Below, piece by piece: positions 42,748-64,000 of a stretch of 64,000 bases of DNA (positions within the stretch are counted from its first letter, which is position 1; every line of letters begins with the position of its first letter). Below the pieces are notes generated by a model. It searched no databases, was not told where the DNA came from, and was given only the letters and a program-made list of their open reading frames with translations. Origin of the DNA: Polyangia bacterium (GTDB lineage Bacteria; Myxococcota_A; Polyangia; JAAYKL01); assembly GCA_050287845.1 (NCBI GenBank), contig JBNKCR010000129.1, positions 7,364-71,363 on the forward strand, in the 5' to 3' direction. Both the position numbers and the translations under genes were made by a program.

Positions 42748-43144
42748 ACTCAATCAATTCAGAATCCGCTCGTCTGGCCCGGTTTGGGGCGTCACAATCA
42801 TCGGTTCACTTTCTGTTGAAAAAATAGCGGCAACGTACAATCAGGTTTCTGCATACTCCATGCAGCAGTTTTCGGATAACTTTCCCGTGAATTGCCACCT
42901 GCATTCAGCTTTCGCACACCCTGTAAAAAGCACAGTGCACGATACAGATAGTCTGGGCTTCAATTGTAAAACACTTTTTTTAATTTGCAGGCCCATCCGG
43001 AGTGTGACTGGCATTTCCTGTGCAATGAACACGAACATACTCTTTGCCGGCGAGGAAACCGGGATGCGTTCCGTTTTTGCAGCGCGTCTCAAACAAACAC
43101 TTTTACATTTCCTTAACTATGGGGAAAGACCAGGAGAAAGAATT

Positions 43145-43807
43145 ATGAAAAGAAGAAGTATTTTTGCATTGGTATTGTCGACGATTCTGTCATTTTCAGC
43201 ATTGGCTTCTGCACAGGAAATTATTCCGTCGTTTCAACTTCGTCTCGACAATGAAATTTATCCCATGACTCAGAGTGACCCACAAAGTGAGCCACAGACA
43301 TGGACCGCCGTGTTTTATCTGAACGAGGAGGAAGCTGAGCGAAATGAAGGGGTTCAGGCCAATATTGACTTCCAGATTGGGGATTTGACAGGGGGCACCA
43401 GCTGGTCCTATTGCTACTATCTGGAGGAGAATGTTTCCGTTCCCGAAACCGGACTGATTACAGAGAAAGGTGATATCAATCAGGTGCCTTTCCGCCTGTC
43501 TGCGGACGACCAGATTCCGGGCCGGTACAAAGCAGTACTTAACGCCAGTAGCGGTGCCATCGATTTCACATATCTGGATGAAGGCACCCTGGGAGACGTG
43601 AACCTTGATGGGGTTGTGGATATCGTAGATTCGCTGCTGATTTCTCAGGACTACGTCCACACCCCCATTACCTCTACCTACGAAACGGATCTTGCGGATG
43701 TTAATTGTGATGGAAGCGTGAATGTCGTTGATTCATTGCTGATTGCCCAGGCGTACGTTCAGGTTCAAAGCGCCATCGACACAATCGCGGAATGTGCCGC
43801 CAACTGA
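43145..43807 (+). CDS. secreted protein with C-terminal dockerin-type tandem repeat
   Basis: Start at MKRRSIFALVLSTILSFSALASA (signal peptide, GGAGAAAG RBS upstream; ORF opens at 42860). C-terminus has two Ca-binding-loop-like repeats, DVNLDGVVDIVDSLLISQDYV and DVNCDGSVNVVDSLLIAQAYV. Confidence 0.7.
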   Translation: MKRRSIFALVLSTILSFSALASAQEIIPSFQLRLDNEIYPMTQSDPQSEPQTWTAVFYLNEEEAERNEGVQANIDFQIGDLTGGTSWSYCYYLEENVSVPETGLITEKGDINQVPFRLSADDQIPGRYKAVLNASSGAIDFTYLDEGTLGDVNLDGVVDIVDSLLISQDYVHTPITSTYETDLADVNCDGSVNVVDSLLIAQAYVQVQSAIDTIAECAAN

Positions 43808-45199: not shown

Positions 45200-45378
45200 A
45201 AAAAGTCTCCCTTCTTCGGTAAACCCTCTAACCGCAACAGAACTTCGCTGCGGTGATGTATTCTCCCGCTGTCTCGGTAGGTTGCCGTGCCAATACAAAG
45301 TGTTGAGGAGAAGGAGAAATGGGTTGGGATATCTGAACTATCGGCGGATGTCAAGATAGTTGTCGCATGAGTGTTGCA

Positions 45379-46224
45379 TCATGCGGCCTCCTTAATTGAG
45401 ACTTTTGCCGGATTGAGGGACACCGTTTCTACCGGGATCCAGTTTCGTGTTTTTCCAGTCCAACGGTTTGGTTCTTTTTGTTTTGCACTCTCATAAACCA
45501 AATGTCGTTGACGCAAAATTTCTTTATCATCACCATTATGGCGCGCCTCGGGGGTAACGAAGCGGATGCCGCTGTGTAAGTGTTTTGTATTGTACCAAAT
45601 CACAAATTTCTCCATCCAGCGCCTTGCTGAATCGATGGATTCAAACGGCTTGTGAGGGTATTCTGGTCTGTACTTTAATGTTCTGAAGATTGACTCGGAA
45701 TAGGGGTTATTATCGCTTACTCCCGGGCGACTGAAAGATGCCATCACGCCAGGCTGGTCAAGTGTCGCAAGCATTGTGGCGCCTTTCATCGGGCCGCCGT
45801 TGTCTGAATGCAAAGAAAGCTGATTTGCATCTACACCATTGGCGTCAATAATCTGGACAATCATGGCAGATGAAATTTCCATACACTCACGGTCGTGAAT
45901 TTCCCATCCAATAATCTTTCTGCTCCAAACGGCCAGCACAAGATACGGATAATAAAACGTTCCTCTGACCGCTGCAGGCAAGTACGAAATATCCCAACTC
46001 CACACCTGATTGGGGCCCGTTGCCAAAAGTTCATCGGGTCGATTGTGCGTTGCGGGTTTTGAGGATTCTCGATGTTGCTGTTGTCCCTCCTCACGAAGAA
46101 TCCGATACATGGGAGACTCGGATGCCACGTACACGCCGCTATCAGCCAACCTGGGTACAATTTGATAGTTCCCTTGAAGGGTTGACCGATACGCCCAAAG
46201 AAGCGCTGACAATGGGCATCGCAT
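45379..46224 (-). mobile_element. IS3-family transposase remnant (OrfB integrase-core part only; OrfA and the 5-prime part missing)
   Basis: Integrase-core (rve) signature PNQVWSWDISYLP...YYPYLVLAVWSRKIIGWEI and the DDE region; no HTH OrfA frame upstream; transposase-like similarity starts only about 30 codons into the ORF. Confidence 0.7.
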
Positions 46225-46575: not shown

Positions 46576-47448
46576 CTACATGTGCCTGGCGAACAGTTTG
46601 CTCATGGCATCCCGGGAGATGGGGGGCTGTTTTACGAGTGGTGTGGTCTCGATTTGGGGAATCCGGTCCTGGAAAGCGTTGCCGCTGTCATCGTGGTAAA
46701 AGAGCCCCACCGGAATCTCGTCGCCCCAGGCCATGGCTTTTTCAATGGCCCGGATGCGATCGTTGGTTGGATAATCCGGGTCATCGTTGATATTCACGAT
46801 GCGGTCTTTGTACCACTTGAAGGTGTTCACTTTGTTCATGCTCACACAGGGTTGGAGAATTTCGATGTAACTGAGGCCTCTGTGCTTCACGCCCATCTGA
46901 ATCAATTCGGACAGATGTTTGGTGTCGCCTGAAAAACTGCGCGCCACAAAACGACATCCAAGGGTCAGCGCCAGCGCCGGTCCGCGCAGGGGATACGATA
47001 TCACGCCACGGGGCTGAAGCCTGGTCTGCAGTCCCATGTCACTGGTGGGGGACGCCTGCCCCTGGGTCAATCCATAAATCTGATTGTTGTGAACCATCAG
47101 CGTCACATCAATGTCCCTGCGGAGGGTATGCAGAAAATGTCCGCCACCTTCACCATACATATCCCCATCCCCGGAGTTCAGGAGAATGGTCATATCTTCA
47201 TTGGCCAGCTTGGCGCCGGTGGCGGCAGGCAGTGCACGTCCATGAAGACCACAGTATGCGTTGGCCGTGATGTACTGGGGCAGCTTGGCTGCCTGACCGA
47301 TTCCAGCCATCATCATCACTTCGTGGGGTTCTTTGCCCAGCGCTTCCAGTGCGTCCTTTACGGCGGCAAGAATGCCAAAATCGCCGCAACCGGGGCACCA
47401 TGCGGTTTCTTTTACTGTACAGATATTGAACGATTTGCACTCACTCAT
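46576..47448 (-). CDS. 2-oxoacid:ferredoxin oxidoreductase, beta (TPP-binding) subunit
   Basis: 290 aa; N-terminal Cys cluster (CPGCGDFG); TPP-binding GDG motif (NSGDGDMYGEGGGH); overlaps the alpha gene stop/start. Confidence 0.85.
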   Translation of the reverse strand: MSECKSFNICTVKETAWCPGCGDFGILAAVKDALEALGKEPHEVMMMAGIGQAAKLPQYITANAYCGLHGRALPAATGAKLANEDMTILLNSGDGDMYGEGGGHFLHTLRRDIDVTLMVHNNQIYGLTQGQASPTSDMGLQTRLQPRGVISYPLRGPALALTLGCRFVARSFSGDTKHLSELIQMGVKHRGLSYIEILQPCVSMNKVNTFKWYKDRIVNINDDPDYPTNDRIRAIEKAMAWGDEIPVGLFYHDDSGNAFQDRIPQIETTPLVKQPPISRDAMSKLFARHM

Positions 47449-49148
47449 TTTACCACCTCCAGAACCGCTTCGGTCAGGTCTTCGACAATATAGGGCCGAC
47501 CATCGTATTTCGTCATGATTTCGGGCTTGATGCCGGTGCTCTGAGCGATGATGGCTGCCAGTTGACCCGTACTGTTGCCTTCCACCGAGATGATGCGTTT
47601 GCTTTTTTCAACCGCGCTGCTGAACTGTCTGGTTGGAAATGGCCAGATATCCGTGAGATGCACGTGATTGAGATGCACCCCCCGTTCTTTCAGAATGGCC
47701 ACGGACTCTGACAGGGTATCTCCAGTGGAACCCCAGCTGACCACTGCCACTTCAGCGTCCCTTGTGCCACTGGTCTGCACATTGTACGTGGCACTCAGTC
47801 GCGCGGTTTTCCGTGCGCGCTTTTCAACCATAGCCTTTCTGATTTTCGGATCATCCGTAATGTGGCCGGTCTCCACATGTTCGTGGCTGTCGGTGAGCAT
47901 CAGATGTTTGCTCTGCCCCGGGTACGCTCTGGGAGAAATGCCTGAATCCGTAATGGCATATCGTTTGTACTCAGTCATCTGAGACAGTGTTCTGGTTGAG
48001 ATCATCGACGTTTCTGTGGGAATCCGATCCAGATTGTACTGATCAACCGTGAAGAACGAATCCGCAATATGCTGGTCAGAAAGCACAATCACCGGAATCT
48101 GGTATCGGTCGGCGATATTGAATGCCCTTGCGGTGATGTAAAAAATATCTTCCGCGTTGGTGGCGGCCAGAACCGCCCGGGGGAAATCCCCATGGCCGGT
48201 GAACGTGGAGAAGAGCAGATCGGCTTGCTCCTGACGGGTGGGAAGCCCGGTTCCAGGACCGCCGCGCTGGCAGTTGACAATGACAAGAGGCACCTCTGAA
48301 ATACCGCAGAGGGAAATCGTTTCACTCATAAGCGCCATACCGCCACCGGATGTGGATGTCATGGCGCGAACGCCCGCCATGGACGCGCCCACTGCCTGAT
48401 TCACCGCGGCGATTTCGTCTTCTGCCTGTTCTGTGACGATGCCTGCAGTCACCTCGGCATTGGCCAGGTAGGTGATAATACCGGTGGAAGGCGACATGGG
48501 ATAGCAACTGATGAATTTCATGTTCGCCGAAAGCGCTCCCAGCGCAGCGGCTTCGTTTCCGTTGAGAAACAATCTGGATGGCGCGCCGTCAATGGTTGGA
48601 AGCGAACCCAGTCTGCCCGCATGGGCTTTTCCCCGGGTGTTGCCTTCCGCTGCCGCACCGATGTTACCGGCCGAGATGGTCTCGTCCCTGAAACGCTCCC
48701 TGAAAAGGGTATTGAGAAGTTCAATATCCAGACCAAGGACACCCAAAACGAATCCCACCGCTGCGGAGTTGGAGTAAATGGGCTTCTTTCCAGTCTCCAT
48801 CGCAATCTGTCTGAGTGGGACATCGATAATCCGGGGATCGGCGATGTTCGCCTTCAGTGTAGCATTGTCAACGATCGCAATGCCATCTTTGTGGAGCGCT
48901 TCAATGTCGCTCTCCATTTTTTCCCTGTCGAGGGTGACCAGTAAATCCACCTGCTTTTTCATCGCCCACACGGGGACATCGCTGATGCGCAGTTGAAAAA
49001 AGTTATGTCCGGCGCGAATTCGCGACTCTGAATCCTGCACGCCAAACACGTGGTAACCGGCCCGCACGCAGGCCTTTCCCAGCAGTTTTCCGGTACTCAG
49101 AAGTCCCTGTCCGGCTGCTCCAGCCAATCTGATATTAATGTCGGTCAT
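47445..49148 (-). CDS. 2-oxoacid:ferredoxin oxidoreductase, fused gamma-alpha subunit
   Basis: 567 aa; N-terminal gamma-type domain (LAGAAGQGLLSTGKLL) fused to an alpha-type domain (CYPMSPSTGI, GGPGTGLPT). Confidence 0.85.
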   Translation of the reverse strand: MTDINIRLAGAAGQGLLSTGKLLGKACVRAGYHVFGVQDSESRIRAGHNFFQLRISDVPVWAMKKQVDLLVTLDREKMESDIEALHKDGIAIVDNATLKANIADPRIIDVPLRQIAMETGKKPIYSNSAAVGFVLGVLGLDIELLNTLFRERFRDETISAGNIGAAAEGNTRGKAHAGRLGSLPTIDGAPSRLFLNGNEAAALGALSANMKFISCYPMSPSTGIITYLANAEVTAGIVTEQAEDEIAAVNQAVGASMAGVRAMTSTSGGGMALMSETISLCGISEVPLVIVNCQRGGPGTGLPTRQEQADLLFSTFTGHGDFPRAVLAATNAEDIFYITARAFNIADRYQIPVIVLSDQHIADSFFTVDQYNLDRIPTETSMISTRTLSQMTEYKRYAITDSGISPRAYPGQSKHLMLTDSHEHVETGHITDDPKIRKAMVEKRARKTARLSATYNVQTSGTRDAEVAVVSWGSTGDTLSESVAILKERGVHLNHVHLTDIWPFPTRQFSSAVEKSKRIISVEGNSTGQLAAIIAQSTGIKPEIMTKYDGRPYIVEDLTEAVLEVVK

Positions 49149-49337
49149 GAGGTCTCGGGCTCCATTTTCTGTTGATATACATTGAGAATAGTATCTCGCT
49201 TTCTATATTCGCAATCACCAGAGTTAAACACATCTCAGGCTGAGTGCAACCTCACCGTCGTAACATCCGGCCTTCATCGGACAGATGCTTCGGGAATTAC
49301 ATCAGACATGAAAGTAAACATGATGCTGCGCGGCCAA

Positions 49338-49853
49338 TCAGGCGCCATCGAGACCATGACGCTCTGATGCGTCAAACCAGGCTTCGGGGTCCTGCAGATA
49401 CGCAAGGGAATCTTCGATGGAAAGCTGGTGATCATGTTCGATTTTTTTCAGAAAACCGAAGAATTCCTGTTCTCTGGGGTTCTTGCATTTTTTCACCAGA
49501 TCCGCATAGAAGTCTGCGGCGTCTTTTTCAAACTGAGCTGCCGCTTTCAATGCTTCAATATCACTGTCGTCGTGGGCTTTTGTTTCTTCAGCCTTGTAGT
49601 CGAGTTTTTCGAGCTCTTCTTTTACATTGCTGTCCTGCATTTCCAGGTTCACATCTTCTGGCCATGCGCCATCCGCCAGGAGCGTACTGTGGAGTTTGTT
49701 AATCCACCGTTTGTGGTCTTCCTCTTCCTCCGCCAGCGTTTCAAGCAGACGTTTCACCACGGGATTGGTCGAACGGGCCGCCTCTTTCAGATAGTAATCT
49801 TTTTCGCGTTGCTCATTGTCCATTGCAAATTTTATTGAAGAAATTTTATCCAT
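49338..49853 (-). CDS. ferritin-like / rubrerythrin-like diiron domain protein
   Basis: 171 aa; paired E...E-x-x-H helices (TLAEEEEDHKRW, KKIEHDHQL); no rubredoxin module. Confidence 0.6.
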   Translation of the reverse strand: MDKISSIKFAMDNEQREKDYYLKEAARSTNPVVKRLLETLAEEEEDHKRWINKLHSTLLADGAWPEDVNLEMQDSNVKEELEKLDYKAEETKAHDDSDIEALKAAAQFEKDAADFYADLVKKCKNPREQEFFGFLKKIEHDHQLSIEDSLAYLQDPEAWFDASERHGLDGA

Positions 49854-49896
49854 AACTTTGCTCCTTTACAAAAATCGATGTCCACAAAAGTGAAAA

Positions 49897-50385
49897 CTAG
49901 TTTTCCACCAGCACAACCTCATCGTATTCGACTTCAAATCGCAGTTTGTGCTTTGCTTCTTCCTGGGCCAGCGCAAGAAACAGCGCTTTAATCTCGGGGG
50001 TATCCACTCGACTCGCCAAATCCATGTACAGGCGGAATGCCTGTTTCTCCTGTTGCATGGCAAACAGCAGAATATCCTGGTACGACGGGGATTCACCCAG
50101 CTTCACAGGAACTGTATAATCCGAGAGCTTCATATCGGATGTCGCCGAAGCGCTCTCCAGTACATCTTCGCCTTCCAGAACGTCCTCAAGCTTTTTCCGG
50201 TGTTCCATTTCTTCTTCAGCGTACTCCAGAAAGATTTTTCTGATTTCATTGTTCTTCGCCCTGGCGGCCAGATCGGTATAGAGTACCGCTGAGCGCTGTT
50301 CAAGAGATATGGCATACTCCAGGATGTCCTTTGTGCTCAGGTGTCCGGTCATCGTTATATTCTCACCATTACGTAAGACAGGCAC
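49897..50385 (-). CDS. ferritin-like / rubrerythrin-like diiron domain protein
   Basis: 162 aa; YAEEEMEHRKKL and LAQEEAKHKLRF motifs; start may be the internal MTGHLSTKDI (50352). Confidence 0.6.
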   Translation of the reverse strand: MPVLRNGENITMTGHLSTKDILEYAISLEQRSAVLYTDLAARAKNNEIRKIFLEYAEEEMEHRKKLEDVLEGEDVLESASATSDMKLSDYTVPVKLGESPSYQDILLFAMQQEKQAFRLYMDLASRVDTPEIKALFLALAQEEAKHKLRFEVEYDEVVLVEN

Positions 50386-50441
50386 GGGTGTTGCGCAAAA
50401 CGCTTACGGATTCGGGCAACACTTTCGCGCCTGCGGATTCA

Positions 50442-50984
50442 TCAGAAATATCGTTTCAACAGTCCGGCAAATGCCTGACCGTGCCTTGCTTCGTCTTTGC
50501 ACATTTCATGTACGGTATCGTGAATGGCATCGTAATTCAGCTGTTTGGCTTTGGTTGCGATGTCCTTTTTCCCCTGGCAGGCGCCGTGCTCCGCAGCGAC
50601 GCGCATTTCCAGGTTTTTCTTTGTGTCTGCCACAAGCACTTCACCCAGAAGCTCAGCAAACTTGGCCGCATGTTCCGCTTCTTCGAATGCAATGCGTTTG
50701 TATGCTTCGGCAACTTCCGGATACCCTTCGCGTTCCGCCTGTCGGCTCATGGCGAGGTACATGCCCACCTCCGTGCATTCGCCCATGAAATTCTGACGCA
50801 ATCCTTCCAGTATTTCGGCGTCAACATCTTTGGCCACGCCAATGCGATGCTCATCCGCCCAGGTCATTCCGGTACCGGACTGCTCCTGAAATTTTTCTTT
50901 GGGGGCGCCGCATTGGGGGCATTTGTCCGGCGCACTGTCGCCTTCGTATACGTAACCACAAATGGTGCAAATGTATTTTTTCAT
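50442..50984 (-). CDS. reverse rubrerythrin (N-terminal rubredoxin-like, C-terminal ferritin-like)
   Basis: Start at [15 protein letters not shown] (ORF opens at 51005); CxxC...CxxC at the N-terminus (CTICGY...CPQCGAP), then a diiron four-helix region ([20 protein letters not shown]). Confidence 0.8.
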
Positions 50985-51065
50985 TTGATACTCCTCTTTT
51001 TTCAATCGGTTAATTGTTGTTGATGTGATTGCATCATTAATGTCTCCGCGCGTATTGTCAATCGC

Positions 51066-52200: not shown

Positions 52201-53019
52201 ATGACCTTTTTGGAACCGTATTCGAGCCCGCGTGTACTTGCCACGGCCGGTCTCCCCAATGAGCAGGATCGCTTTTCAGACGCAGGGATAATTTCGAAAG
52301 CGCCCGTGGAGGTGACCCACGAACTGGCTTCGCTGCTGGCGCACCTGCATGAGCGCGTATCTCCCAACTATCGTCCGCGCGAAATCATTCTGGAGCTGTT
52401 GGCCGAGCTCGAAAGAAAATCGGCATTCACCGCCCAGCATTCGATGAAGGTGGCCACCGTTGCCCGCATTCTCGCCAAATCACTGCATCTCGATATTGTG
52501 GCCCTGGAGCGAATCAGCCTTGCTGCGTTACTCCACGACGTGGGCAAACTGGTGATTCCCATCCGCATCCTGAACAAAAAGAAAGCGTTGTCGGATGCAG
52601 AACGCCGTTGCATCCAGACCCATGCCGTATTCACCGATGTCATCCTCTCCGCATTTCCCATCTTCGATGCCATTCGGGGGATTGCCACACTGCATCACGA
52701 ACACCTCAATGGCACCGGGTATCCGTTCGGGTATGGCGGCAGCGACCTTTCCATGGAAACGCGGATTATCACCGTGTCCGACATCTTTGTTGCATTGACC
52801 GAAGATAGACCCTATCGCCCCGGCGTGACCCAATCCGCCGCACTCCACAAGCTGCAGATGCTGGCCAGTGAGGATATTGTGGACCGCAGGCTGGTGGAAA
52901 GTGCCAGGCAACATCTGCTTCCCCACAACCACTCTTCCGCCATCTGGTTTCCATCCCGGACCGCCATCTCCATCGCCCTCGATTTCGAGTCCCTGCAGAC
53001 TGCCGGAATGATTTCGTAA
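52201..53019 (+). CDS. HD-GYP domain phosphohydrolase (putative c-di-GMP phosphodiesterase)
   Basis: 272 aa; HD motif LLHDVGKL and GYP motif HLNGTGYPFG. Confidence 0.8.
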   Translation: MTFLEPYSSPRVLATAGLPNEQDRFSDAGIISKAPVEVTHELASLLAHLHERVSPNYRPREIILELLAELERKSAFTAQHSMKVATVARILAKSLHLDIVALERISLAALLHDVGKLVIPIRILNKKKALSDAERRCIQTHAVFTDVILSAFPIFDAIRGIATLHHEHLNGTGYPFGYGGSDLSMETRIITVSDIFVALTEDRPYRPGVTQSAALHKLQMLASEDIVDRRLVESARQHLLPHNHSSAIWFPSRTAISIALDFESLQTAGMIS

Positions 53020-53999: not shown

Positions 54000-54222
54000 C
54001 GCCACGGGCAGGACGGTGCGACGCTTCCCCGGTGCGCCGGGATGTGAAGCCCACCGCATCGCCGGTCTGTCGCCTAAACAACGAGACGGCCTTTCGTAAT
54101 ATTATTAATTTAGCAATTATTTGTTTTCGGTAAGTACAGAAAATACGTGTAGTTTTTGGTTCGCGCAGTGGTATAAACCTTTGGAACGGATAAAAAATGA
54201 TTTTCGCAACCCCGGACCAGAT

Positions 54223-55851
54223 ATGACATTGATCCGTTTTTTATTGAGTGCGTCCCTGAAAATGACGCTGCTCACCATATTCGTGGCACTGCTCAGCGGC
54301 GCATTCAGCGGCGCCGTTGTGGCTGTGGTGCATCGGACGATTGAATCAGACCGTGAACTGACGCTGCTGCTGGGTATCGCATTTGTTCTGGCGGCGACCG
54401 GTAAACTGATTACCGGATATTTCAGTGAAGTCATGCTCACCAGAAGAGCGCAGACCGCCGTCGCCGCGTTGCGTCTGGACCTGGTTCGCAAACTGCAGCG
54501 GGTGCCGTTCAAGCGCTTTGAGGAGTTGGGACAGGCGAGGATTCTCACCACCTTCACCGACGATGTGGCGTCAGTAAGCCAGGGGCTGTACCAGCTGCCG
54601 GCATTCACCATCAACGTTGCGGTGTCTCTGGGCGGGGCGCTGTACCTGGTATATCTGTCGTGGCAGACACTGTTTCTCCTCGGCGGGCTGTCGCTCATTG
54701 GCGCCCTGGTGTATCGCTTCATGCTGAGACGTGCATGGCGGGTGTATGGCCTGGCGCGCGATGAGCGGGATCGACTGAACAATCACCTCGTTACATTGAC
54801 CCGGGGTATGAAGGAACTCAAACTGCACCGACCGCGACGTCATGCCTATACCGAAGTTGAGCTCCAACACAGCACCGACAGGCTCATGGAACTGGATGTC
54901 AAATCCCACTCGCGGTATATTCTGGCCCACAGCACCACCCATTTTTTTCTGATGGTCCTCATCGGACTGATTGTATTTGTCTCGCCCCAGCTCCTGCATA
55001 TTTCCGAAACCACGGTGACCGGATATGTGTTGATTGCACTTTTTCTGATGGGACCCCTGAGCGGGATTGCCGGCACCATGCCGGTATTCAGCCGGGCCGG
55101 GGTGGCTGTGGATCGCATCCGCAAACTGGGGATTTCATTCGATTCCGGCAAGCAGGAAAAAGCGGTGGTCACTGCAGAGGACGCCGCGTCGTTTATGGAA
55201 ATATCGCTGAATGAGGCCACATGTGTCTATGAAAGGGAAGGGGACGCCCCCTTTACCCTTGGACCGGTGAACCTGAAATTCGGTCCGGGCGAATTGATTT
55301 TTATTACCGGCGGAAATGGAAGTGGCAAGTCTACCCTCGCGAAGTTACTCACCGGTCTGTATGCACCCGGGGACGGTCAGATTCTGTGGAATGGCACACC
55401 GGTGACTGACGAAAATCGGGATGATTACCGGCAGCTGTATACCACGGTGTTTTCAGATTTCTTTTTATTTGAATCGCTGCTGGGACTGGATTCCCCCAAT
55501 CTGGACACCCGGGCGCAGAGCCATTTGAAAAATCTGGGACTCGATAAAAAAGTGCGCATTGAACATGGCGCATTGTCAACGGTGAATCTTTCAACCGGAC
55601 AACGAAAGCGGCTGGCATTGCTGACCGCATATCTTGAAAATCGACCAATCTATGTGTTTGACGAGTGGGCAGCGGACCAGGACCCGTCGTTCAGAAAAGT
55701 GTTTTATGAAGAACTGATTCACGATTTGAAAGCAGAGGGCAAAACAATCCTCGTGATTACGCATGATGACAGATATTTTCACCTGGCGGACCGACATTTT
55801 GAAATGAGGGACGGGCAGATGGCAGAACGGGACAGACAAAAAAAGGAATAG
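54223..55851 (+). CDS. cyclic-peptide/siderophore-type ABC exporter (fused permease-ATPase)
   Basis: Start at MTLIRFLL (ORF opens at 54121); N-terminal six-helix permease; C-terminal ATPase with Walker A GGNGSGKST, signature LSTGQRKRLALL, Walker B IYVFDEW. Confidence 0.8.
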   Translation: MTLIRFLLSASLKMTLLTIFVALLSGAFSGAVVAVVHRTIESDRELTLLLGIAFVLAATGKLITGYFSEVMLTRRAQTAVAALRLDLVRKLQRVPFKRFEELGQARILTTFTDDVASVSQGLYQLPAFTINVAVSLGGALYLVYLSWQTLFLLGGLSLIGALVYRFMLRRAWRVYGLARDERDRLNNHLVTLTRGMKELKLHRPRRHAYTEVELQHSTDRLMELDVKSHSRYILAHSTTHFFLMVLIGLIVFVSPQLLHISETTVTGYVLIALFLMGPLSGIAGTMPVFSRAGVAVDRIRKLGISFDSGKQEKAVVTAEDAASFMEISLNEATCVYEREGDAPFTLGPVNLKFGPGELIFITGGNGSGKSTLAKLLTGLYAPGDGQILWNGTPVTDENRDDYRQLYTTVFSDFFLFESLLGLDSPNLDTRAQSHLKNLGLDKKVRIEHGALSTVNLSTGQRKRLALLTAYLENRPIYVFDEWAADQDPSFRKVFYEELIHDLKAEGKTILVITHDDRYFHLADRHFEMRDGQMAERDRQKKE

Positions 55852-55859
55852 TATTTTTT

Positions 55860-58800
55860 ATGTTGGCATATGGAATAGATACCATCAACGAAGCTTTAAA
55901 ACGAAATGCAGAGCAGTATGGCGACGACATTGCGTTCCGATTCATCCAGGGCGGTACAGATGAAAAGAGTATCACCTACGCCGAACTGTATTCGAGAGCG
56001 CTGCAGATAGCTTCGCAGTTTCGATTGGCAGAAATCCCGTTACAGTCGAAGGTATTGATTCTGTATCCGTCCTCCCTTGAATACATCTGCACGCTGTTCG
56101 GTTGTTTTCTGGCGGGGACAACCGCGATACCGGCGTATCCACCGGTGTTCAACCGGTCACTCTCCGCCCTGCGGAATATCGTTCTCGATTCCGGAGCAAC
56201 CATCGCCTGTGTGGAATCGGCGATTCGGGAGCAGTTGCAACCGTTGCTTCACACGGAGTCCTGGCTCGAAAATCTGAACTGGATGACCCCGGAAGAAGAT
56301 GTTGACGACGCCGTCGATACGAGCGCCCTGCCAGATGTGGCGCCGGAAGACCTGGCCGTTCTGCAATACACGTCCGGTTCCACCAGTGCCCCCAAAGGCG
56401 TGATGTTGTCCCATCGAAATCTGGTGGCCAATGCCCATATGCTCATGGCGCGTGTGCAGGCGACCGCCCGGGTAGACAGAATGGTCGCCTGGCTGCCCCC
56501 GTTTCACGATATGGGTCTCATCGGGAGTATTCTGGCGCCGGTATGCGCCCGGGTGGAATCCACCCTGATGCCCCCCAGTTCGTTTATCAAAAAGCCCCTT
56601 CGCTGGCTGGAAGCGATTTCCAGATATCGGGGAACCATCACTGCGGCGCCGGATTTCGCGTACGAGATGTGTGTGCATCGCACCCCTCCGAAGCAGCGGG
56701 AACTGGTGGATCTCTCCAGCCTGCGCGTGGCCCTGAACGGGGCGGAGAAGGTTCGCGAAGACACGCTGAACCTGTTCTGTGATGCGTTTAAATCGCAGGG
56801 ATTCTCAATGTCGGCATTTGCGCCGTCCTACGGGTTGGCGGAAGCGACACTGGGGGTTGCCATCAAACGGAATGGCAATACGCCGCTTGCCCGCCGATTT
56901 GATACGGAGAAACTGAAGGAAGGGTTGGCGGTCCCGGTCGGCGGCGATGACGGCACATCCCTGGTCACCTGCGGCAAGCCCCTCGATGGCGTGGATGTGA
57001 AAATTGTTTCCATTGAAACGCGGCAAGTCGTTACACCCGGGATGATTGGCGAAATTTGGGTGCGCAGCGCCAGCGTGTCCAGGGGATACTGGCAGAAAAT
57101 CGAGTTGAGTCGTGAGATTTTTGAAGGAACGCTGCCTTCGGATGGCAGACCGGATGAGAAGTATCTGGCCACCGGTGATTTGGGATTCCTGTATGACAAT
57201 GAATTGTATGTGACCGGCCGCCACAAGGATCTGATCATTGTGCTGGGGGTCAATCATTATCCGGAAGACATCGAGAAAACAGTTGAATCCGCCCATCCCG
57301 CCATCCGGCAACATACTGTCATTGCGTTTGCGCTGCCGATAAACGGGACCGAGCGCGTGGTGGTGACCACTGAGATTGCCCGGGGCAATGAATTCGCCCT
57401 CGACGACATCATTGGTGCCATCCGCAATGCCATCAGCACCCGACATCAGTTGCCGGTGTACGATATTGTGCTGCTTCCCCAGGGAGGACAGGTGGCCAGG
57501 ACCACCAGCGGGAAGCCACGGCGCAGCGCGTCCCGGCAGAAGTACGAAGCCAACGGGTTTACGCCGCTGGGAAGCAGTCAGATGCAGCAGGGGACAGAAT
57601 CGGGTTCTCCGGCGGAAGAAATTGCAGTGGTCCAGCGGGTCATGGCGGAAGTGCTTTCGGTGGACCGGGTTTCAGCAGACGACGACTTCTTTGCCCTGGG
57701 CGGACATTCGCTCATCGCCACCCAGCTGGCCTCCCGGTTGGCATCTCTCTGGGAAAGAGAGGTGCCCGTGCGGGTGATATTCGAGCGGCCGACGGCTGCC
57801 CGGCTGGCGGGGGTGCGGCACTCGCTGCCGGTGACCGGAAAACGGAATCAGATACAGAAGGTGGACCGAAGCGGTCCGCTGGTGCTTTCCCACTCTCAGG
57901 AGCGAATGTGGCTGTTGCACCAGCTGGAACCGGATGGCACGGCATACAATGTTTCCGGTGCGGTAGTGGTGGATGGTCCGTTCAACGTGGTCCATTGCCA
58001 GACGGCGATGCAGCGCCTGGTTGACCGCCATGAAACCCTGCGAACCACTTTCCCTTCCGAAGGCGGTACGGTTTCTCCCATGATTCACTCCAATGTGAAA
58101 ATCAACGTTGTTTGTGAAGACCTGTCGAGCGCCGATGACCCGCTGGAACAGGCCGCACGCAAGGGGTCGCTGCTGGCCCACAGGCCGTTTGATCTGGCGA
58201 GGGATTTGCTGATACGGGTTGCCATATTCAAAGTTGCCGACGTTCGGCATGCCATTGTCATTTCGATGCATCATGTCATCTCCGATGCATGGTCTCTGGG
58301 CGTGGTGCTCAAAGAAATCATGGAAGACTACCTGGCATTGAACCGGGGCGAAGTTCCGACTTCGGTGGTGCCGGACATTCAGTATGTGGATTACGCGGCC
58401 TGGTTCCGGCCCGTCGTGGAAAGTGAACGGTTCAATGATGAACTGTCGTATTGGCGGAACCGACTGCAGGGCACACCGAATCTTGAACTGCCCACCGATC
58501 GGTCCCCGGGTTCGAATGTGAGTTCAGCAGGGGAAATGGAACGACTGCAAATTTCGGAAACCCTGCGCAATGAAATTGAGGATTTGGCCCATCAACATGG
58601 CGCCACGCCATTCATGGTGATGCTGCTGGCCTTTGAAACCCTGTTGTACCGGTACAGCCGGCAAACGGATTTTGCCATCGGGGTGCCCATTGCCAACCGC
58701 AATCATCATCAGTCCGAACATCTGGTTGGCACCCTGGTCAATACCCTGGCTTTCCGCGCGAATCTGAATCCAAAGGAGGCATTCAGTGCGCAACTGGAAC

Positions 58801-61775
58801 GCATCCGGGAAGACTGCCTCGATGCGTATGCCCATCAGCAGTTGCCGTTTGAGCGGCTGGTGCAGGAACTGCATCTCGAACGGCGAGCGGGACAGACGCC
58901 CCTGGTGCAGGTGATGTTTGACTACGCCAATCCGCCCATGCCAAAGGCCCGGACCGACGAATTTTCGCTATCGCCCCTGTTCATTTCGAGACGGGCTGCC
59001 CAGTTTGATTTGAGTCTGCTCACCCTGGATTCCGAAATCGGATTCGTGACAGCGATGGAATATAGGAGCGATTTATTCGATGCGTCCACCGTGCGGCGCA
59101 TGCTGGACCATTACCTGCGTATTCTGAAATTGGCGGTCACCAATCCCACTCAGCGTCTTTGTGACATGGCGTTTCTTTCTCAGGATGAAATCCGGGAAAT
59201 CGTTGCTCTCGGCGCCAGCACAAATATGAAACCGGTTTCATCGGATACCACGGTCGCGCGCATTGTGGCTGGTGCCGATGGGGTGACAGGTAAAATGGCG
59301 GTGACAGATGAAGTCGATGGGATCACGTACGGCAGGTTGATGGAACTGACTCGTACGGCTGCCGCAAAGATGGCTGCGGCCAACGTGGCAGCGGGAAGCC
59401 GGGTGGCAGTATGTCTGGAACGGTCACGGCTGATGCCGGCGGCACTGCTGGCGGTGCACTGGCTGGATGCGGCGTACGTACCCATCGACCCGCATTTCCC
59501 GGCTGAACGGGTGAGATACATGCTGTCGGAGACCACGCCCGCGGTGGTGGTCTGCGATGAGGCCACCACCGCCGCGTATCCGGAGTTGGCGCAATACCCG
59601 TGTCTGCGGATTGAAGACGTGGTACAGAGCGAGCCCCTCACGCCACCACCTCTGACCACCCGACCCGATTCCACGGCGTATATTATTTTTACTTCCGGCT
59701 CCACGGGAAAACCAAAAGGAGTGGAGATTCCCCAGCGCGCCATGCTGAACTTTCTGGAGTCCATGGCCCATACACCGGGAATGACTGCCACCGATCGCCT
59801 GCTGTCCGTCACCACCATATCGTTTGACATTTCAGTGCTCGAAATCTTTTTACCGCTGCTCTGTCAGGCCGAAGTGAAGATTGTCGGCAGCGATACGGCA
59901 TTGAACGCCCAGAAACTGCGGGGAATACTGGAAGAGACTGATGTCACCGTGATGCAGGCCACGCCGGTCACCTGGCGGATGCTCATTGAATCCGGATGGG
60001 CAGGCAGCGATTTGTTGACGGTACTCTGCGGCGGTGAAGCAATGCCCGCTGATCTGGCGGAACAGTTGGTTACTCGCAGTAAAGCCCTGTGGAATATGTA
60101 TGGGCCTACGGAAACCACCGTGTGGTCCACGGTTCAGCAAATCAGAACAAAGGAAGCCATTGATATTGGCCGGTCCATTGATCGGACCGCAGTGTATATT
60201 CTGGATGCCACAAAACAGCTTTGTCCCATTGGTGTCACTGGCGAAATCTATATCGGCGGCGCCGGCGTGGCCAAAGGATATTTCAAGCGTCCGGAACTCA
60301 CGCAGGAGCGATTTGTCAAAGACCCCTTTACCCCCGGATTCGGCGATCGCATGTATGGTACCGGCGATCTTGGACGCATGCGATCGGATGGCACATTCGA
60401 ATGTTTCGGTCGTCTGGATCATCAGGTGAAAATTCGTGGATACCGCATTGAGCTGGGTGAAATTGAAGTTGCGCTGAAACAATTGCCCGAAGTGGCGGAT
60501 GCGGTGGTCATTCCCTGGGAGGTAACCCCCGGGGATGCGCGTCTTTCCGCCTATATTATCGCAGAAGGGACGGCGCCAGAGAGCGAGCAACTGCGAAATG
60601 TACTTCGAAAATCGCTGCCGGGATACATGGTGCCCAGCTGGTTCACGGTGATGGCCCAGTTCCCCACCACGCCCAACGGTAAAATTGACCGCAAGGCACT
60701 GCCTGGCCCCGATGCGAAACTGGAAGTGCAGAGCCCGCTGAGAGTCGCCCCGCGGAGTGAGACAGAGAAAGCGCTGGCCGTCCTGTGGGCCCGGACCCTG
60801 GATGTGACCCATCCGAGTATTACCGACAACTTCTTCGATGTGGGACACTCGCTGCTGGCTGCCCGGTTGTTCGGGCAAATCGAAAAAGAGATGGGGGTTT
60901 CGCTCCCCCTGTCGGTGCTGTTTTCGCATCCCACCATTGAGATGCTGTCCGCATACATCGACGGACAGGTCGATGAACTGGGGTATTACGAACTGAAATA
61001 TGTGGTGCCCATCAAACCCCGGGGGCGCGCCACGCCGGTGTTCTGTATCCACGGCGCCGGGGGGAACGTGCTCAATTTTGAGTCCCTCGCAAGGCATATC
61101 GACGCGGATTGTCCACTGTATGCCATCCAGGCCCGTGGGGTGCATGGCACGGAAACGCCCTTTGACACCATTGAAAAGACGGCGTCGGCCTATCTGGAAG
61201 AAGTCATGGAGATTCAACCGACCGGTCCATACATTATCATGGGATACTGCGCCGGTGGGGTTGTGGCATTTGAAATGGCCAGGCAGATTCAGTTGAAAGG
61301 TGACATGGTGCGGGATTTGATTCTGATAGATACGTTCCGTCCCGGGGTTGGCTATACCATTCCCTCATTCGGCAAACGGGTGCTTCGCGCGGCGACCAAA
61401 GGTCCGGGGCATTTCTTCCGACACAGTTTCTCCAGGCTGCATCGAATTAAAGAGGACAACGCCAATCTGAAGGCGCTGAACAGGCACCTGAGCGCCGGCG
61501 AGCCGGTGCCCCACGAACTGAGGACCCTTTGGCTGACCCGGGCGTTTCTGGACTCCGTTGAAAAGTACCAGCTGCCGGTGTACGATGGGGCACTCACCAT
61601 CTTTGAAGCGGCGGATGTTCCTTCGGATCTGGTGTGCAGTGAGCCCAATCTGGGATGGGATGGATACGCTGCGTCCATCAGTTGCACCAAAGTGCCGGGA
61701 GGCCACCTCACCCTCACCGACGAACCCAACGCAAAAGTCCTGGCCACCGAACTCTGCAACCGCCTCCACCGCTGA
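55860..61775 (+). CDS. non-ribosomal peptide synthetase, FAAL - carrier - C - A - carrier - TE (single amino-acid module with lipid-loading domain)
   Basis: 1971 aa. FAAL-like domain aa 1-565 (TSGSTSAPKGV). Carrier GGHSL (Ser617). C domain HHVISDAWS (aa 804-812). A domain core motifs FTSGSTGKPKGV, FDIS, NMYGPTE, GEIYIGGAGVAKGY, YGTGDL, GRLDHQVKIRGYRIELGEIE, LPGYMVP, PNGKIDRKAL. Second carrier FFDVGHSL (Ser1664). TE with IHGAGGN and GYCAG. Confidence 0.9.
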   Translation: MLAYGIDTINEALKRNAEQYGDDIAFRFIQGGTDEKSITYAELYSRALQIASQFRLAEIPLQSKVLILYPSSLEYICTLFGCFLAGTTAIPAYPPVFNRSLSALRNIVLDSGATIACVESAIREQLQPLLHTESWLENLNWMTPEEDVDDAVDTSALPDVAPEDLAVLQYTSGSTSAPKGVMLSHRNLVANAHMLMARVQATARVDRMVAWLPPFHDMGLIGSILAPVCARVESTLMPPSSFIKKPLRWLEAISRYRGTITAAPDFAYEMCVHRTPPKQRELVDLSSLRVALNGAEKVREDTLNLFCDAFKSQGFSMSAFAPSYGLAEATLGVAIKRNGNTPLARRFDTEKLKEGLAVPVGGDDGTSLVTCGKPLDGVDVKIVSIETRQVVTPGMIGEIWVRSASVSRGYWQKIELSREIFEGTLPSDGRPDEKYLATGDLGFLYDNELYVTGRHKDLIIVLGVNHYPEDIEKTVESAHPAIRQHTVIAFALPINGTERVVVTTEIARGNEFALDDIIGAIRNAISTRHQLPVYDIVLLPQGGQVARTTSGKPRRSASRQKYEANGFTPLGSSQMQQGTESGSPAEEIAVVQRVMAEVLSVDRVSADDDFFALGGHSLIATQLASRLASLWEREVPVRVIFERPTAARLAGVRHSLPVTGKRNQIQKVDRSGPLVLSHSQERMWLLHQLEPDGTAYNVSGAVVVDGPFNVVHCQTAMQRLVDRHETLRTTFPSEGGTVSPMIHSNVKINVVCEDLSSADDPLEQAARKGSLLAHRPFDLARDLLIRVAIFKVADVRHAIVISMHHVISDAWSLGVVLKEIMEDYLALNRGEVPTSVVPDIQYVDYAAWFRPVVESERFNDELSYWRNRLQGTPNLELPTDRSPGSNVSSAGEMERLQISETLRNEIEDLAHQHGATPFMVMLLAFETLLYRYSRQTDFAIGVPIANRNHHQSEHLVGTLVNTLAFRANLNPKEAFSAQLERIREDCLDAYAHQQLPFERLVQELHLERRAGQTPLVQVMFDYANPPMPKARTDEFSLSPLFISRRAAQFDLSLLTLDSEIGFVTAMEYRSDLFDASTVRRMLDHYLRILKLAVTNPTQRLCDMAFLSQDEIREIVALGASTNMKPVSSDTTVARIVAGADGVTGKMAVTDEVDGITYGRLMELTRTAAAKMAAANVAAGSRVAVCLERSRLMPAALLAVHWLDAAYVPIDPHFPAERVRYMLSETTPAVVVCDEATTAAYPELAQYPCLRIEDVVQSEPLTPPPLTTRPDSTAYIIFTSGSTGKPKGVEIPQRAMLNFLESMAHTPGMTATDRLLSVTTISFDISVLEIFLPLLCQAEVKIVGSDTALNAQKLRGILEETDVTVMQATPVTWRMLIESGWAGSDLLTVLCGGEAMPADLAEQLVTRSKALWNMYGPTETTVWSTVQQIRTKEAIDIGRSIDRTAVYILDATKQLCPIGVTGEIYIGGAGVAKGYFKRPELTQERFVKDPFTPGFGDRMYGTGDLGRMRSDGTFECFGRLDHQVKIRGYRIELGEIEVALKQLPEVADAVVIPWEVTPGDARLSAYIIAEGTAPESEQLRNVLRKSLPGYMVPSWFTVMAQFPTTPNGKIDRKALPGPDAKLEVQSPLRVAPRSETEKALAVLWARTLDVTHPSITDNFFDVGHSLLAARLFGQIEKEMGVSLPLSVLFSHPTIEMLSAYIDGQVDELGYYELKYVVPIKPRGRATPVFCIHGAGGNVLNFESLARHIDADCPLYAIQARGVHGTETPFDTIEKTASAYLEEVMEIQPTGPYIIMGYCAGGVVAFEMARQIQLKGDMVRDLILIDTFRPGVGYTIPSFGKRVLRAATKGPGHFFRHSFSRLHRIKEDNANLKALNRHLSAGEPVPHELRTLWLTRAFLDSVEKYQLPVYDGALTIFEAADVPSDLVCSEPNLGWDGYAASISCTKVPGGHLTLTDEPNAKVLATELCNRLHR

Positions 61776-61799
61776 ATCACTGAATTCGAACAGGAAGAC

Positions 61800-61860
61800 A
61801 TCGGATACGCCTGGTTGGCGTATCCCCGGGATCGCTGGGCTCCAGTCCTGTTTTCTGCAG
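61800..61860 (+). terminator. candidate intrinsic terminator after the NRPS gene
   Basis: Perfect 9-bp stem GGATACGCC/GGCGTATCC with 5-nt loop about 28 nt after the stop, and a short T run (tgttttctg) about 25 nt further on; the T tract is not adjacent, so weak. Confidence 0.3.
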
Positions 61861-62094
61861 TGCACATTGATGTGTAGAGGAGGGGAAGACGATAATGACG
61901 GTCATTGCTTTCTGATATCGGCGCCGTTTTGCACTGCTGCTTCGGATAGATCATGATAAATTTTTAAACATGTTTCTGAAATTGGTGGCGATGAAGATGC
62001 CTCCAGAACACTCCGCCATTGTTTCAGCAATTTCTCCATCTCAGGACAGTGATCATTATAAAATTGCCACCTTGCTTCCGCTGCATCCCGCCCG

Positions 62095-62365
62095 ACTTCG
62101 TTGCTCGTCGGTCGCATACCCCGGTATGTTCCGCTCCTCGCGCCTTGCCGGTCCGGCGCAGCAAATGCCATGTTGGAAATTTTATTTCGACCACTGTCCT
62201 TAGGTCTTGCTCATAAATAACTCTGCCATTCATGCAACAAACTTGACATCCCTGCTGCGTTGCTCCTCCTCGCCATACCGCCAGTATGACTCGTTGTCGC
62301 GCCTTGCCGGATATGTCATCCTGTTACCTGAATCAACAGATTTATTTATGAGCAAACCCTTAGAC
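62095..62365. repeat. intergenic composite repeat: about 55-bp imperfect direct repeat plus about 20-bp inverted repeat (ttgctcataaataa core)
   Basis: Copy A about 62099-62155 and copy B about 62258-62312 share cgttgctc...cgcgccttgccgg; inverted copies of (c)ttgctcataaataa at about 62204-62220 and 62341-62361. Confidence 0.4.
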
Positions 62366-62444
62366 AAAATTAAATCTGAAGTTTAATTTTGTCTGATTTT
62401 GTTTTGGGGAACAGGAGATCTCCCCTGCTGGATGCATAAACCAT

Positions 62445-63116
62445 TCAATTCAGAATATGGGGCAAAACGAGGCGCAGGTCTTTGTGTGGGATTTCCACGT
62501 CGCAGAGGTTGGCGAGGGTTTGGGATTTGCAGTTGAAGGCAATGGAGAGGCCGGCGGATTTGGCAATCCAGATGTCGTTTTCGTTGTCGCCCACAAATAC
62601 GGCCTGTTCTGTGGCGATGCCCGCCTTTTCGCACAGATGACGCAACCCGTCGGCTTTGGCTTCCACGTCAAACGGGGTGTGAATGCCCCCGTCAATATCG
62701 CCGGATGCATTGAAATGGATGCGGTTGATGAGCACGTCGTCGAAGGCGAAATGGGGAAACAGCACATCGAGCACCGTCTGAATGGAACCGGACACCACGG
62801 CCACCGCCAGTCCCGCAGCCTTCAGGGTCTTAAGGGTTTCCATGGCGCCGCACATGGGTTTCAGTGTGCGACACATCTGAATGATACCGTTGCGGTTGGC
62901 CCCGGCTGCCCGAAGCAGTTTTAAATCGTGGCGAAACCATTCTTCGTAGGTGATGGCGCCGGAAAAATAGTCGTCGTAGGCCTGCTGTCGTTCTTTGGGG
63001 TCGGTATGGAACCCTTCGTGCAGGGTTTTCCAGATGTACACCGTATCGTCAACCAGGGTGCCGTCCAGATCGAAACATACAAGGGAATAGGGGAGCGGGA
63101 ATTCAGATGTGTTCAC
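62445..63116 (-). CDS. HAD-superfamily hydrolase (phosphatase-like)
   Basis: 223 aa; motif I LVCFDLDGTLVDD near the N-terminus; motif IV region VFVGDNENDIWIAKSAG. Confidence 0.75.
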   Translation of the reverse strand: MNTSEFPLPYSLVCFDLDGTLVDDTVYIWKTLHEGFHTDPKERQQAYDDYFSGAITYEEWFRHDLKLLRAAGANRNGIIQMCRTLKPMCGAMETLKTLKAAGLAVAVVSGSIQTVLDVLFPHFAFDDVLINRIHFNASGDIDGGIHTPFDVEAKADGLRHLCEKAGIATEQAVFVGDNENDIWIAKSAGLSIAFNCKSQTLANLCDVEIPHKDLRLVLPHILN

Positions 63117-63988
63117 AGTCGGTTCCGTTTTAAAAATTCTTCAATCTTAAGACTGATGAGGTCCGGATATTCCAGGGGAACAAAATGGGTGCCGCCTTTT
63201 ACCAGTAAAAATTCCCGATGGGATTTGTCGCCCCGGGTGAACTCCCGGGTGCGCCTTTGCGGAATGAGTTTGTCCATACTGCCGGAAACCGCCAGTATGG
63301 GGTTCTGGGAATCTTTTACAATGGCGGAGGCATTGTGTCTGGATGCCATCTGCTGGTAGTAGGTGTAGTGGCGGGTGGGGATGTTCACAAAGTCGCGAAT
63401 GATGGCATCCATAATCAGTTCGTCGGCGGAAGGCGCCATCAGGCCCAGTCTTCTGGCCCAGCGACTGGGATGTTCATTCTTTCGAATCATCTTGCGAAGT
63501 CTCGAGACCGCTTCTTCCTTCTGGGACAGCCATTCCACCGTCTGGGTGAGGTTGGGGCGGATGCCAATGGTTTCAAACAGGGGGTCGCTCAAGTGGGCAA
63601 ACGGTTTTCCGGCAACGCCACTGATGGCGACCAGGGCCGCAATATCGGACGACGCCAGACACTCCGCTGCCACCTGAGTCCCGAAGGACCAGCCAATCAG
63701 AATGGCTCTTCTGTGACCGTCCTGCGCCATCAACTCCTGTTGAAACCCCGCCAGCAGCGGGACATCCAGCTCCCGTTTGGCAAAGAGCGAAGATGATGCG
63801 TCGTAGCCGGGATACTCAATCATGTAGAGCGGATGATTGCTTCGCAGCACGGCGGCAAGGCTGGACCAGATAAGATAGGTGCCAAATACGCCACCCCACA
63901 TGTAGACGGGGATTCCGGAATCGTTGTCACAGATGCTGCGCACGGTGAGTTCGCAGTCACAATGCATCTTCCGGGATTCAATCTGCAT
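63113..63988 (-). CDS. alpha/beta-fold hydrolase
   Basis: 291 aa; nucleophile elbow GWSFG (ILIGWSFGTQVAAE); stop overlaps the HAD gene start; start codon lies 12 nt from the window end. Confidence 0.7.
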   Translation of the reverse strand: MQIESRKMHCDCELTVRSICDNDSGIPVYMWGGVFGTYLIWSSLAAVLRSNHPLYMIEYPGYDASSSLFAKRELDVPLLAGFQQELMAQDGHRRAILIGWSFGTQVAAECLASSDIAALVAISGVAGKPFAHLSDPLFETIGIRPNLTQTVEWLSQKEEAVSRLRKMIRKNEHPSRWARRLGLMAPSADELIMDAIIRDFVNIPTRHYTYYQQMASRHNASAIVKDSQNPILAVSGSMDKLIPQRRTREFTRGDKSHREFLLVKGGTHFVPLEYPDLISLKIEEFLKRNRL

Positions 63989-64000
63989 GGTCAGTCCATC

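Follow-up and report, generated by a model that had tools for sequence, protein, structure and literature searches.

A split counterpart of the locus described here has been studied in Acinetobacter baumannii. Our locus, a gene for a nonribosomal peptide synthetase (NRPS) with a single module beside a gene for an ATP-binding cassette (ABC) exporter, lies in a 64,000-nt stretch of DNA from a Polyangia bacterium (GenBank assembly GCA_050287845.1, contig JBNKCR010000129.1, positions 7,364 to 71,363 of the forward strand), which we call the window and whose own numbering we use throughout. The A. baumannii operon, A1S_0112-A1S_0119, encodes an acyl-AMP ligase, an acyl-CoA dehydrogenase, an acyl carrier protein (ACP), the NRPS AB3403 (A1S_0115), an RND pump, a porin-like protein, A1S_0118 and a phosphopantetheinyl transferase (PPTase). 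AB3403 is composed of condensation (C), adenylation (A), peptidyl carrier (PCP) and thioesterase (TE) domains, and its structures have been deposited (PDB 4ZXH and 4ZXI), the latter with glycine and AMP bound. Quorum sensing controls the operon, which is required for surface motility, pellicle formation and virulence. What it truly makes has yet to be defined; the compound Ac-505, which contains a C15 hydroxyacyl chain, a glycine-derived unit and a Cys-Gly thioether, was read by its authors as the glutathione adduct of an electrophilic precursor.

Related logic is found in several other systems. SwrW (serrawettin W1) and ClbN (colibactin prodrug motif) are monomodular NRPSs with a starter C domain that make acyl-amino acids. 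FrsA, for the FR900359 side chain, is likewise a monomodular starter-C NRPS. Fused starts in which the fatty acyl-AMP ligase (FAAL) domain is followed by ACP, C and A domains are known from multimodular NRPSs. Bacteroidota glycine lipids are made by the acyltransferases GlsB and GlsA, and a 2026 review of the subject mentions no NRPS route. Our literature search returned no characterised FAAL-ACP-C-A(Gly)-PCP-TE protein and no NRPS-made N-acyl-glycine, a result that does not prove their absence.

In the window the two genes are probably an operon for the synthesis and export of an N-fatty-acyl-glycine or of something derived directly from it. As in A. baumannii, an acyl-AMP ligase and an ACP would feed one C-A(Gly)-PCP-TE module, the operon includes a gene for an efflux pump, and the TE has a cysteine at the nucleophile position (GWCFGG in AB3403 in our alignment). 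The ligase, ACP and NRPS that are three separate genes in A. baumannii are a single polypeptide here, and the window operon is limited to the ABC and NRPS genes, lacking the acyl-CoA dehydrogenase, the porin-like gene, A1S_0118 and the PPTase; the pump is of the ABC rather than the RND type. The AB3403 TE is the top profile match and the best fold match of the window TE, and AB3403 was considered as an orthologue. It was downgraded to a functional analogue because in a single-sequence search with the window TE it scores 67.6 bits and is not the top match, and because the C domains show no special relationship (that of the window scores 108 bits with AB3403 and 230 with TycC6).

The other systems are likewise matched in part. 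With the multimodular starters (the saframycin/jorumycin-type, corramycin and potashchelin synthetases, and PvdL) the window protein shares the fused FAAL, the ACP and a C domain for acylation of the first residue, but it ends after that one amino acid with a TE of its own. Like FrsA, SwrW and ClbN it would make an N-acyl amino acid with one module, and in FrsA and SwrW it is also the terminal TE that decides the fate of the product. Those three enzymes, however, use a starter C domain supplied by the acyl-CoA or acyl-ACP of primary metabolism and have neither FAAL nor ACP, whereas the window C domain appears to be of a non-starter type with its donor made in cis. The predicted product class, N-acyl-glycine, is that of GlsB/GlsA, of OlsB-type N-acyltransferases (glycine lipids, commendamide) and of N-acyl amino acid synthases; all of these are small acyl-ACP-dependent acyltransferases without adenylation or carrier domains, and their enzymology is unrelated. 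The locus is therefore less exotic than the first-pass annotation, a model's reading of the sequence without database searches, had implied, given the known fused starts and the studied split analogue with its glycine module and cysteine TE. It is an orphan, uncharacterised variation on well-known chemistry and not a new kind of system; since it follows textbook logic it should not greatly surprise a specialist, and no principle of NRPS enzymology is challenged.

The NRPS gene (55860..61775, + strand, ATG start) encodes 1971 aa. The protein sequence is present identically in NCBI, on a 160-kb contig, and a copy more than 90% identical is present in another sample. Pfam profiles recover the six domains in the order given by the first-pass annotation, FAAL-ACP-C-A-PCP-TE, with E-values from 1e-25 to 1e-145, so that chance is no issue for these calls. 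The FAAL loading domain (aa 8-570, 55881..57569) comprises an AMP-binding part and a DIP2-like/FAAL C-terminal subdomain, and is identified by Pfam, NCBIfam and PDB matches. It is followed by the acyl carrier domain (57612..57818; Pfam PP-binding in two stretches), whose phosphopantetheine site is Ser617 in the motif GGHSL, and by the C domain (aa 675-1114, 57882..59201; Pfam E 4e-100), which has HHVISDAWS at aa 804. The A domain (aa 1144-1608, 59289..60683) divides into AMP-binding (1144-1475) and AMP-binding_C (1534-1608). The PCP (Pfam PP-binding aa 1638-1700, 60771..60959) has Ser1664 in DVGHSL, and the type I TE (Pfam Thioesterase, aa 1726-1961, 61035..61742) aligns with Cys1797, Asp1824 and His1949 as its catalytic residues (GYCAGG ... 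LIDT ... PGGH). All the motifs that had been quoted for the carriers, the C domain and the A3 to A10 cores were located. The marks of a C-A-PCP-TE termination module are present throughout: HHVISDAWS, FTSGSTGKPKG, NMYGPTE, YGTGD, GRLDHQVKIRGYRIE, NGKIDR, VGHSL and the Cys1797/Asp1824/His1949 triad.

We assessed the 120 best matches to the NRPS protein. The majority, multimodular NRPSs, have the FAAL-ACP-C-A start in common with it at 33-40% identity; 13 are single-module proteins of about 1,900-2,030 aa that are 43-50% identical over their full length. The window protein and these 13 make up a family alignment of 14 sequences, in all of which the carrier serines, the ACP motif GGHSL, the HHxxxD motif and the Asp and His of the TE are unchanged. 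The relatives are stand-alone genes in six different contexts. In a scan of one genome per species that used TE alignment, no six-domain member was among the best 80 loci of the matches listed, where the top TE identity was 38%. The family is real and recurrent but small, and so far comes mostly from metagenome contigs. Stand-alone C-A(Gly)-PCP-TE proteins of Mucilaginibacter, Hymenobacter, Winogradskyella and others were considered as split versions and rejected, as they follow an A-PCP hybrid of about 2,200 aa instead of a FAAL and an ACP.

The loading domain is best read as a genuine FAAL. Its best NCBIfam matches are FAAL subfamily models, all below their whole-protein cut-offs (e.g. NF004509, 460 against 775 bits). 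When aa 1-571 were searched against PDB, the top 15 of 18 matches were FAALs or loading domains of the FAAL type (olefin synthase FAAL, FadD23/32/28, and those of Legionella and E. coli); McyG and an 'amino acid adenylation domain' protein made up the other three. The olefin-synthase FAAL 7R7G aligns over the full length at 397 bits with gaps of only 1-2 residues across the insertion region. Motifs A5 and A6 are 68 aa apart in the loading domain and 42 aa apart in the protein's own A domain; the 26 extra residues are the FAAL-specific insertion (about 20 aa between A5 and A6). Transfer to an ACP and not to CoA is predicted.

The C domain resembles the elongation (LCL) type and not the starter type fed by acyl-CoA. 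By a comparison of PDB scores, which is not a phylogeny, it matches elongation-type C domains at 213-230 bits (TycC6 at the top, Txo2 228, DhbF 213, and Txo1 within this range) and solved starter C domains at 68-110 bits (SrfAA 110, RzmA 74, CDA-C1 68); the starter clade, one of two options in the first-pass annotation, is thus disfavoured. An LCL-like domain makes mechanistic sense with an acyl donor that is held on a carrier protein.

For the A domain, alignment to GrsA-PheA gave the specificity code DILQLGMVWK, and the control positions returned DAWTIAAICK. Codes of the type DILQLG(L/M)(I/V)WK, this one included, we take to be glycine codes, and glycine activation is a strong prediction from sequence. 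The solved relatives closest to the C-A-T part are the glycine-activating modules of LgrA (module 2), DhbF and AB3403. The code is glycine-like (DIL...WK) in all 14 aligned family sequences and has the canonical form DILQLGM[IV]WK in eight. It is because of this code that the predicted product is an N-acyl-glycine.

The exporter gene (54223..55851, + strand) encodes a fused permease-ATPase of 542 aa (Pfam ABC_membrane and ABC_tran, a transmembrane and a nucleotide-binding domain in one chain) of the SyrD/PvdE/YojI type. It matches TIGR01194, cyclic peptide export ABC transporter, at 474.3 bits with a cut-off of 286.2, which agrees with its earlier assignment to the cyclic-peptide/siderophore type; there is also weak similarity to MsbA. 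The start at 54223 is supported by homologues that share the same Met. The stop codon TAG (55849-55851) falls exactly 8 nt before the ATG of the NRPS gene, as had been noted, and AAGGA, a Shine-Dalgarno sequence, lies 12 nt 5′ of that ATG. Upstream of the exporter gene, an AT-rich intergenic spacer of 223 nt (54000..54222, + strand) is the likely promoter region of the operon, judging from its sequence, and has an extended -10-like TGGTATAAA near 54168-54177. Generic promoter and terminator scans gave counts at chance level with no promoter site above chance, and no Rfam element was found across 51-64 kb of the window. The two genes would then form one operon with its own promoter region.

The pairing of NRPS and exporter recurs in the family. 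In two relatives of the window's clade, P0005 (locus L082) and P0025 (L083), an ABC gene of 542-545 aa stands directly beside the NRPS gene, downstream and convergent. The ABC proteins of these loci, which have 54% and 70% GC, are 57-60% identical to that of the window, above the NRPS-to-NRPS identity. Coupling of exporter and synthetase is supported by the 8-nt gap with its Shine-Dalgarno sequence and from the presence of these orthologues beside relatives despite changed gene order.

In a second clade (P0085, P0076, P0083) a PPTase, the NRPS and a Polysacc_synt/MOP-type flippase are encoded in that order on one strand. The three-gene cassette was seen at 9369..17483 of L003, at 7002..15537 of L084 and on a contig of JGI 3300075153 (P0076). 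The two flippases that were compared are only 32% identical, and the pairing of a flippase of the lipid-linked-sugar type with an NRPS is unusual. In both clades the conserved partners serve export and priming only; no tailoring, regulatory or immunity gene is conserved beside the family members.

The enzyme also appears to be complete. No other NRPS or polyketide synthase (PKS) domain is found in the 64-kb window, which holds 55 kb of upstream DNA, and the downstream genes are convergent and belong to another operon, so the enzyme stands alone and is not a fragment of a larger assembly line, in agreement with its first description. The gap of 670 nt 3′ of the NRPS gene has no credible open reading frame (ORF) and no Rfam match. 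The idea of a FAAL-primed, one-module NRPS with a dedicated exporter for a lipo-amino acid, which came from the first-pass annotation, thus holds up: the motifs of all six domains are intact, the locus is self-contained, the exporter pairing is conserved and the code is that of glycine.

We propose the following course. A PPTase encoded elsewhere would prime Ser617 and Ser1664. The FAAL would adenylate a free fatty acid, probably of medium to long chain, and load it on the fused ACP, since a FAAL cannot pass its acyl group to CoA; this follows from homology and from the insertion. The A domain is predicted, strongly, to activate glycine and load it on the PCP. From the architecture, the LCL-like C domain would join acyl-S-ACP and Gly-S-PCP to give N-acyl-glycyl-S-PCP. 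The TE would take the chain onto Cys1797 as a thioester and release it, most simply by hydrolysis to free N-acyl-glycine, and this is the least certain step. Finally, the TIGR01194 protein would export the amphiphile from, or translocate it across, the inner membrane, as the conserved gene pairing suggests. Strong sequence evidence favours the fatty-acid loading, glycine loading and condensation steps; we infer the chain length, the way in which the chain is released and what the product is for. By analogy with A. baumannii the product is probably a surfactant, a signal or an envelope lipid linked to surface behaviour.

Several points weigh against this proposal. The support is computational throughout, and the acyl chain could be of another length or be hydroxylated. 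The compound detected for the A. baumannii analogue is not a simple N-acyl-glycine. The PCP motif, DVGHSL, is without one Gly, a feature conserved within its clade, and the window has no PPTase gene in its 64 kb. One close relative, P0006 (L002), has no exporter on its 17-kb contig. The main loose end is the conserved cysteine nucleophile, which may mean that the real release step is not hydrolysis.

The first-pass annotation was right about a terminal TE, but its nucleophile is Cys1797 instead of Ser, in the motif GYCAGG (61242..61259, aa 1795-1800). Asp1824 follows it by 27 residues, the classical position, and His1949 is within VPGGH. Cysteine (GYC[AG]GG) is found in 13 of the 14 aligned family members. 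The AlphaFold model of the TE has a pLDDT of 89. An exhaustive search with the TE only gave 737 cluster representatives at E<1e-30, none more than 44% identical; it added two full six-domain proteins and about a dozen fragments with GYCGGG. Among the nearest 149 TE relatives 113 have Ser and 30 have Cys, and the literature calls Cys a 'less common' TE nucleophile. We considered and rejected a general link between a Cys nucleophile and a terminal glycine module: of the loci compared, 41 combine Ser with another terminal module and 9 combine it with a glycine module, while Cys goes with another module in 9 and with glycine in 3; the three Cys/Gly cases are the window's own contig copy (L001) and the family members L002 and L003.

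Because a plain hydrolytic TE normally has Ser and the conserved Cys is unusual, release may be non-hydrolytic. Assembly would proceed as proposed to N-acyl-glycyl-S-enzyme, and the cysteine TE would then transfer the chain to a different nucleophile (for instance an amine or alcohol, the head group of a lipid or sugar, or another chain), or would give a reactive electrophile; the final product would be a conjugate, an oligomer or a reactive species and not free N-acyl-glycine. We regard this as possible but fairly unlikely. The prevalence of Cys in the family, set against Ser in most of the nearest relatives, suggests it. So does the Pks13 TE, which is among the best matches of the window TE by both sequence and fold and shows that the same broad fold group catalyses transfer. 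Pks13 TE transfers its product to trehalose. The TE of FrsA, again in a monomodular NRPS, transesterifies an N-acyl-amino acid onto an acceptor, and the reading of Ac-505 as an adduct of an electrophilic precursor would agree with a reactive product. Against this, no acceptor-making gene is conserved beside any family member, glycine has no side chain for intramolecular cyclisation, and the Asp is at the classical +27, unlike that of ObiF and SulM.

These last two TEs, which form a beta-lactone and a beta-lactam respectively, are like the window TE in having Cys in place of Ser. In both, the Asp comes after strand beta7 and the substrate must have a side chain with a beta-hydroxy or beta-amino group; the motif of SulM is Gln-Cys-Asn. 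The window TE lacks the features of such enzymes: its motif is Tyr-Cys-Ala and its predicted substrate is glycine, and ObiF is only a weak sequence match to it (29 bits). With a different Asp placement and no beta-nucleophile, ObiF/SulM chemistry is not transferable to a glycine substrate.

Among the genome representatives listed, the TEs closest to that of the window (at most 38% identity) have GYSGGG and are the last domains of proteins about 2,070-2,150 aa long (loci L004, L006, L012, L013, L025, L034, L036, L044, L077 and L081). These proteins come from Chloroflexota, Ramlibacter, Hyphomicrobium, Planctomycetota, Pyxidicoccus and Sneathiella. Since NRPS domain models recognise only their PCP-TE part, they are presumably single-module PKS-like enzymes.

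The nature of the translocators raises another alternative, that the product is a structural lipid of the envelope, a glycine lipoamino acid made by an NRPS and flipped to the periplasmic leaflet or the outer membrane by the ABC or MOP protein. The sole conserved partners are translocators of the lipid-flippase type (the ABC protein with its weak MsbA similarity, and the Polysacc_synt/MOP protein), and the lack of conserved tailoring, regulatory and immunity genes would fit a lipid. An OmpA-family gene lies directly upstream of the locus in the window, and an NRPS route independent of GlsB/GlsA is conceivable for glycine lipids. However, TIGR01194 members are annotated as exporters of peptides, siderophores or microcins. 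The family is also sporadic, with no member among those best 80 genome-representative loci, unlike a core membrane-lipid pathway, and the OmpA neighbour is not conserved. We consider a structural lipid unlikely.

It is very improbable that the NRPS is part of a bigger assembly line or of one that acts in trans, or that it is an inactive relic: the window has no MbtH-like gene or motif, besides having no PPTase gene, and extends only 2.2 kb beyond the NRPS gene, but the loading domain is first and the TE last with all catalytic residues intact, no further NRPS/PKS domain precedes the locus and a converging gcv operon follows it, and the relatives stand alone in their six contexts. The copy more than 90% identical in another sample also speaks against it.

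More speculatively, the trio of FAAL, glycine module and cysteine TE, with a membrane translocator, may be an unrecognised and scattered route to glycine lipoamino acids. Release might be non-hydrolytic, by transfer to an envelope acceptor or through a reactive acyl-glycine, and what is made would then be a lipid of the envelope or a signal for surface behaviour and not an antibiotic. We hold this generalisation to be doubtful. Were it true, the fused enzyme would be a tractable model for the product of the AB3403 motility/biofilm pathway.

If the preferred reading of an N-acyl-glycine operon is true, the locus is a minimal, self-contained lipopeptide machine, in which one protein selects a fatty acid, adds glycine and releases the product beside an adjoining pump. 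It would then be a compact part for the engineering of N-acyl amino acid surfactants, and would mean that an NRPS can make N-acyl-glycines without the GlsB-type acyltransferases that Bacteroidota use. A simpler handle would also be gained on what the glycine-specific, acyl-primed single-module NRPSs with a cysteine TE, such as AB3403, make and why they use cysteine. The interest of the locus lies in its being a minimal member of an uncharacterised recurrent family that may shed light on the AB3403 puzzle.

Two genes that converge on the NRPS gene, for a SerB-like HAD phosphatase (62445..63116, - strand) and an alpha/beta hydrolase (63113..63988, - strand), both identified by Pfam, had been listed with the locus. 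Their convergent position is confirmed, but they are excluded from the locus because they belong to a tightly packed glycine-cleavage operon, gcvT-gcvH-gcvP-hydrolase-HAD, and close it, with spacings of 2 nt and -4 nt. For the same reason they were rejected as tailoring genes. The operon enters from beyond the window edge and was followed on the adjoining piece, L086. Window 62445..64000 (- strand) together with L086 1..6681 contains a K+ channel gene, gcvT, gcvH, a gcvP subunit gene, the hydrolase and the HAD phosphatase, and the hydrolase and HAD genes stand where a second GcvP subunit might be expected. That a glycine-cleavage operon adjoins a glycine-specific NRPS was not seen in the relatives and may be coincidence.

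HD-GYP and OmpA genes upstream had been mentioned as possible members of the locus, a suggestion we drop since neither is conserved beside the relatives. Three family members have genes for cyclic di-GMP signalling no more than a few kb away: the HD-GYP gene of the window (52201..53019), a TPR-GGDEF gene (L084 1..1726/L085) and a PilZ gene (L002 14742..15110). The AB3403 analogue affects motility and biofilm, and such genes are abundant in these genomes, so their proximity may be chance.

An rve-type integrase/transposase gene (45379..46224, - strand) lies about 8 kb upstream of the locus. The GC fraction of the NRPS gene is 0.572, against 0.528 for the window, and that of the 670-nt gap after it is 0.477. 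Integrase and GC contrast may hint at horizontal acquisition, or the contrast may merely reflect NRPS composition.

As to the source organism, the citrate synthase of the window is 83% and 80% identical to proteins from metagenome-assembled genomes labelled 'Deltaproteobacteria bacterium', with further matches below 66%. The region 46576..51005 (- strand) encodes a two-subunit 2-oxoacid:ferredoxin oxidoreductase and then three distinct rubrerythrin-family paralogues, of which one has a rubredoxin-like domain at its N terminus, and looks like an island for oxidative stress and anaerobic metabolism. An anaerobe had been guessed from these genes, which is plausible; the source is likely to be an uncultured lineage of deltaproteobacterial grade that lives anaerobically or microaerophilically. 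Three long ORFs have no Pfam match at E<=1e-3 to 1e-5: 14337..17177 (- strand, 946 aa), 44003..45298 (- strand, 431 aa) and 10166..11380 (+ strand, 404 aa). The 315-aa product of the gene at 42860..43807 has a dockerin type I domain, an unusual feature in a genome of deltaproteobacterial grade.

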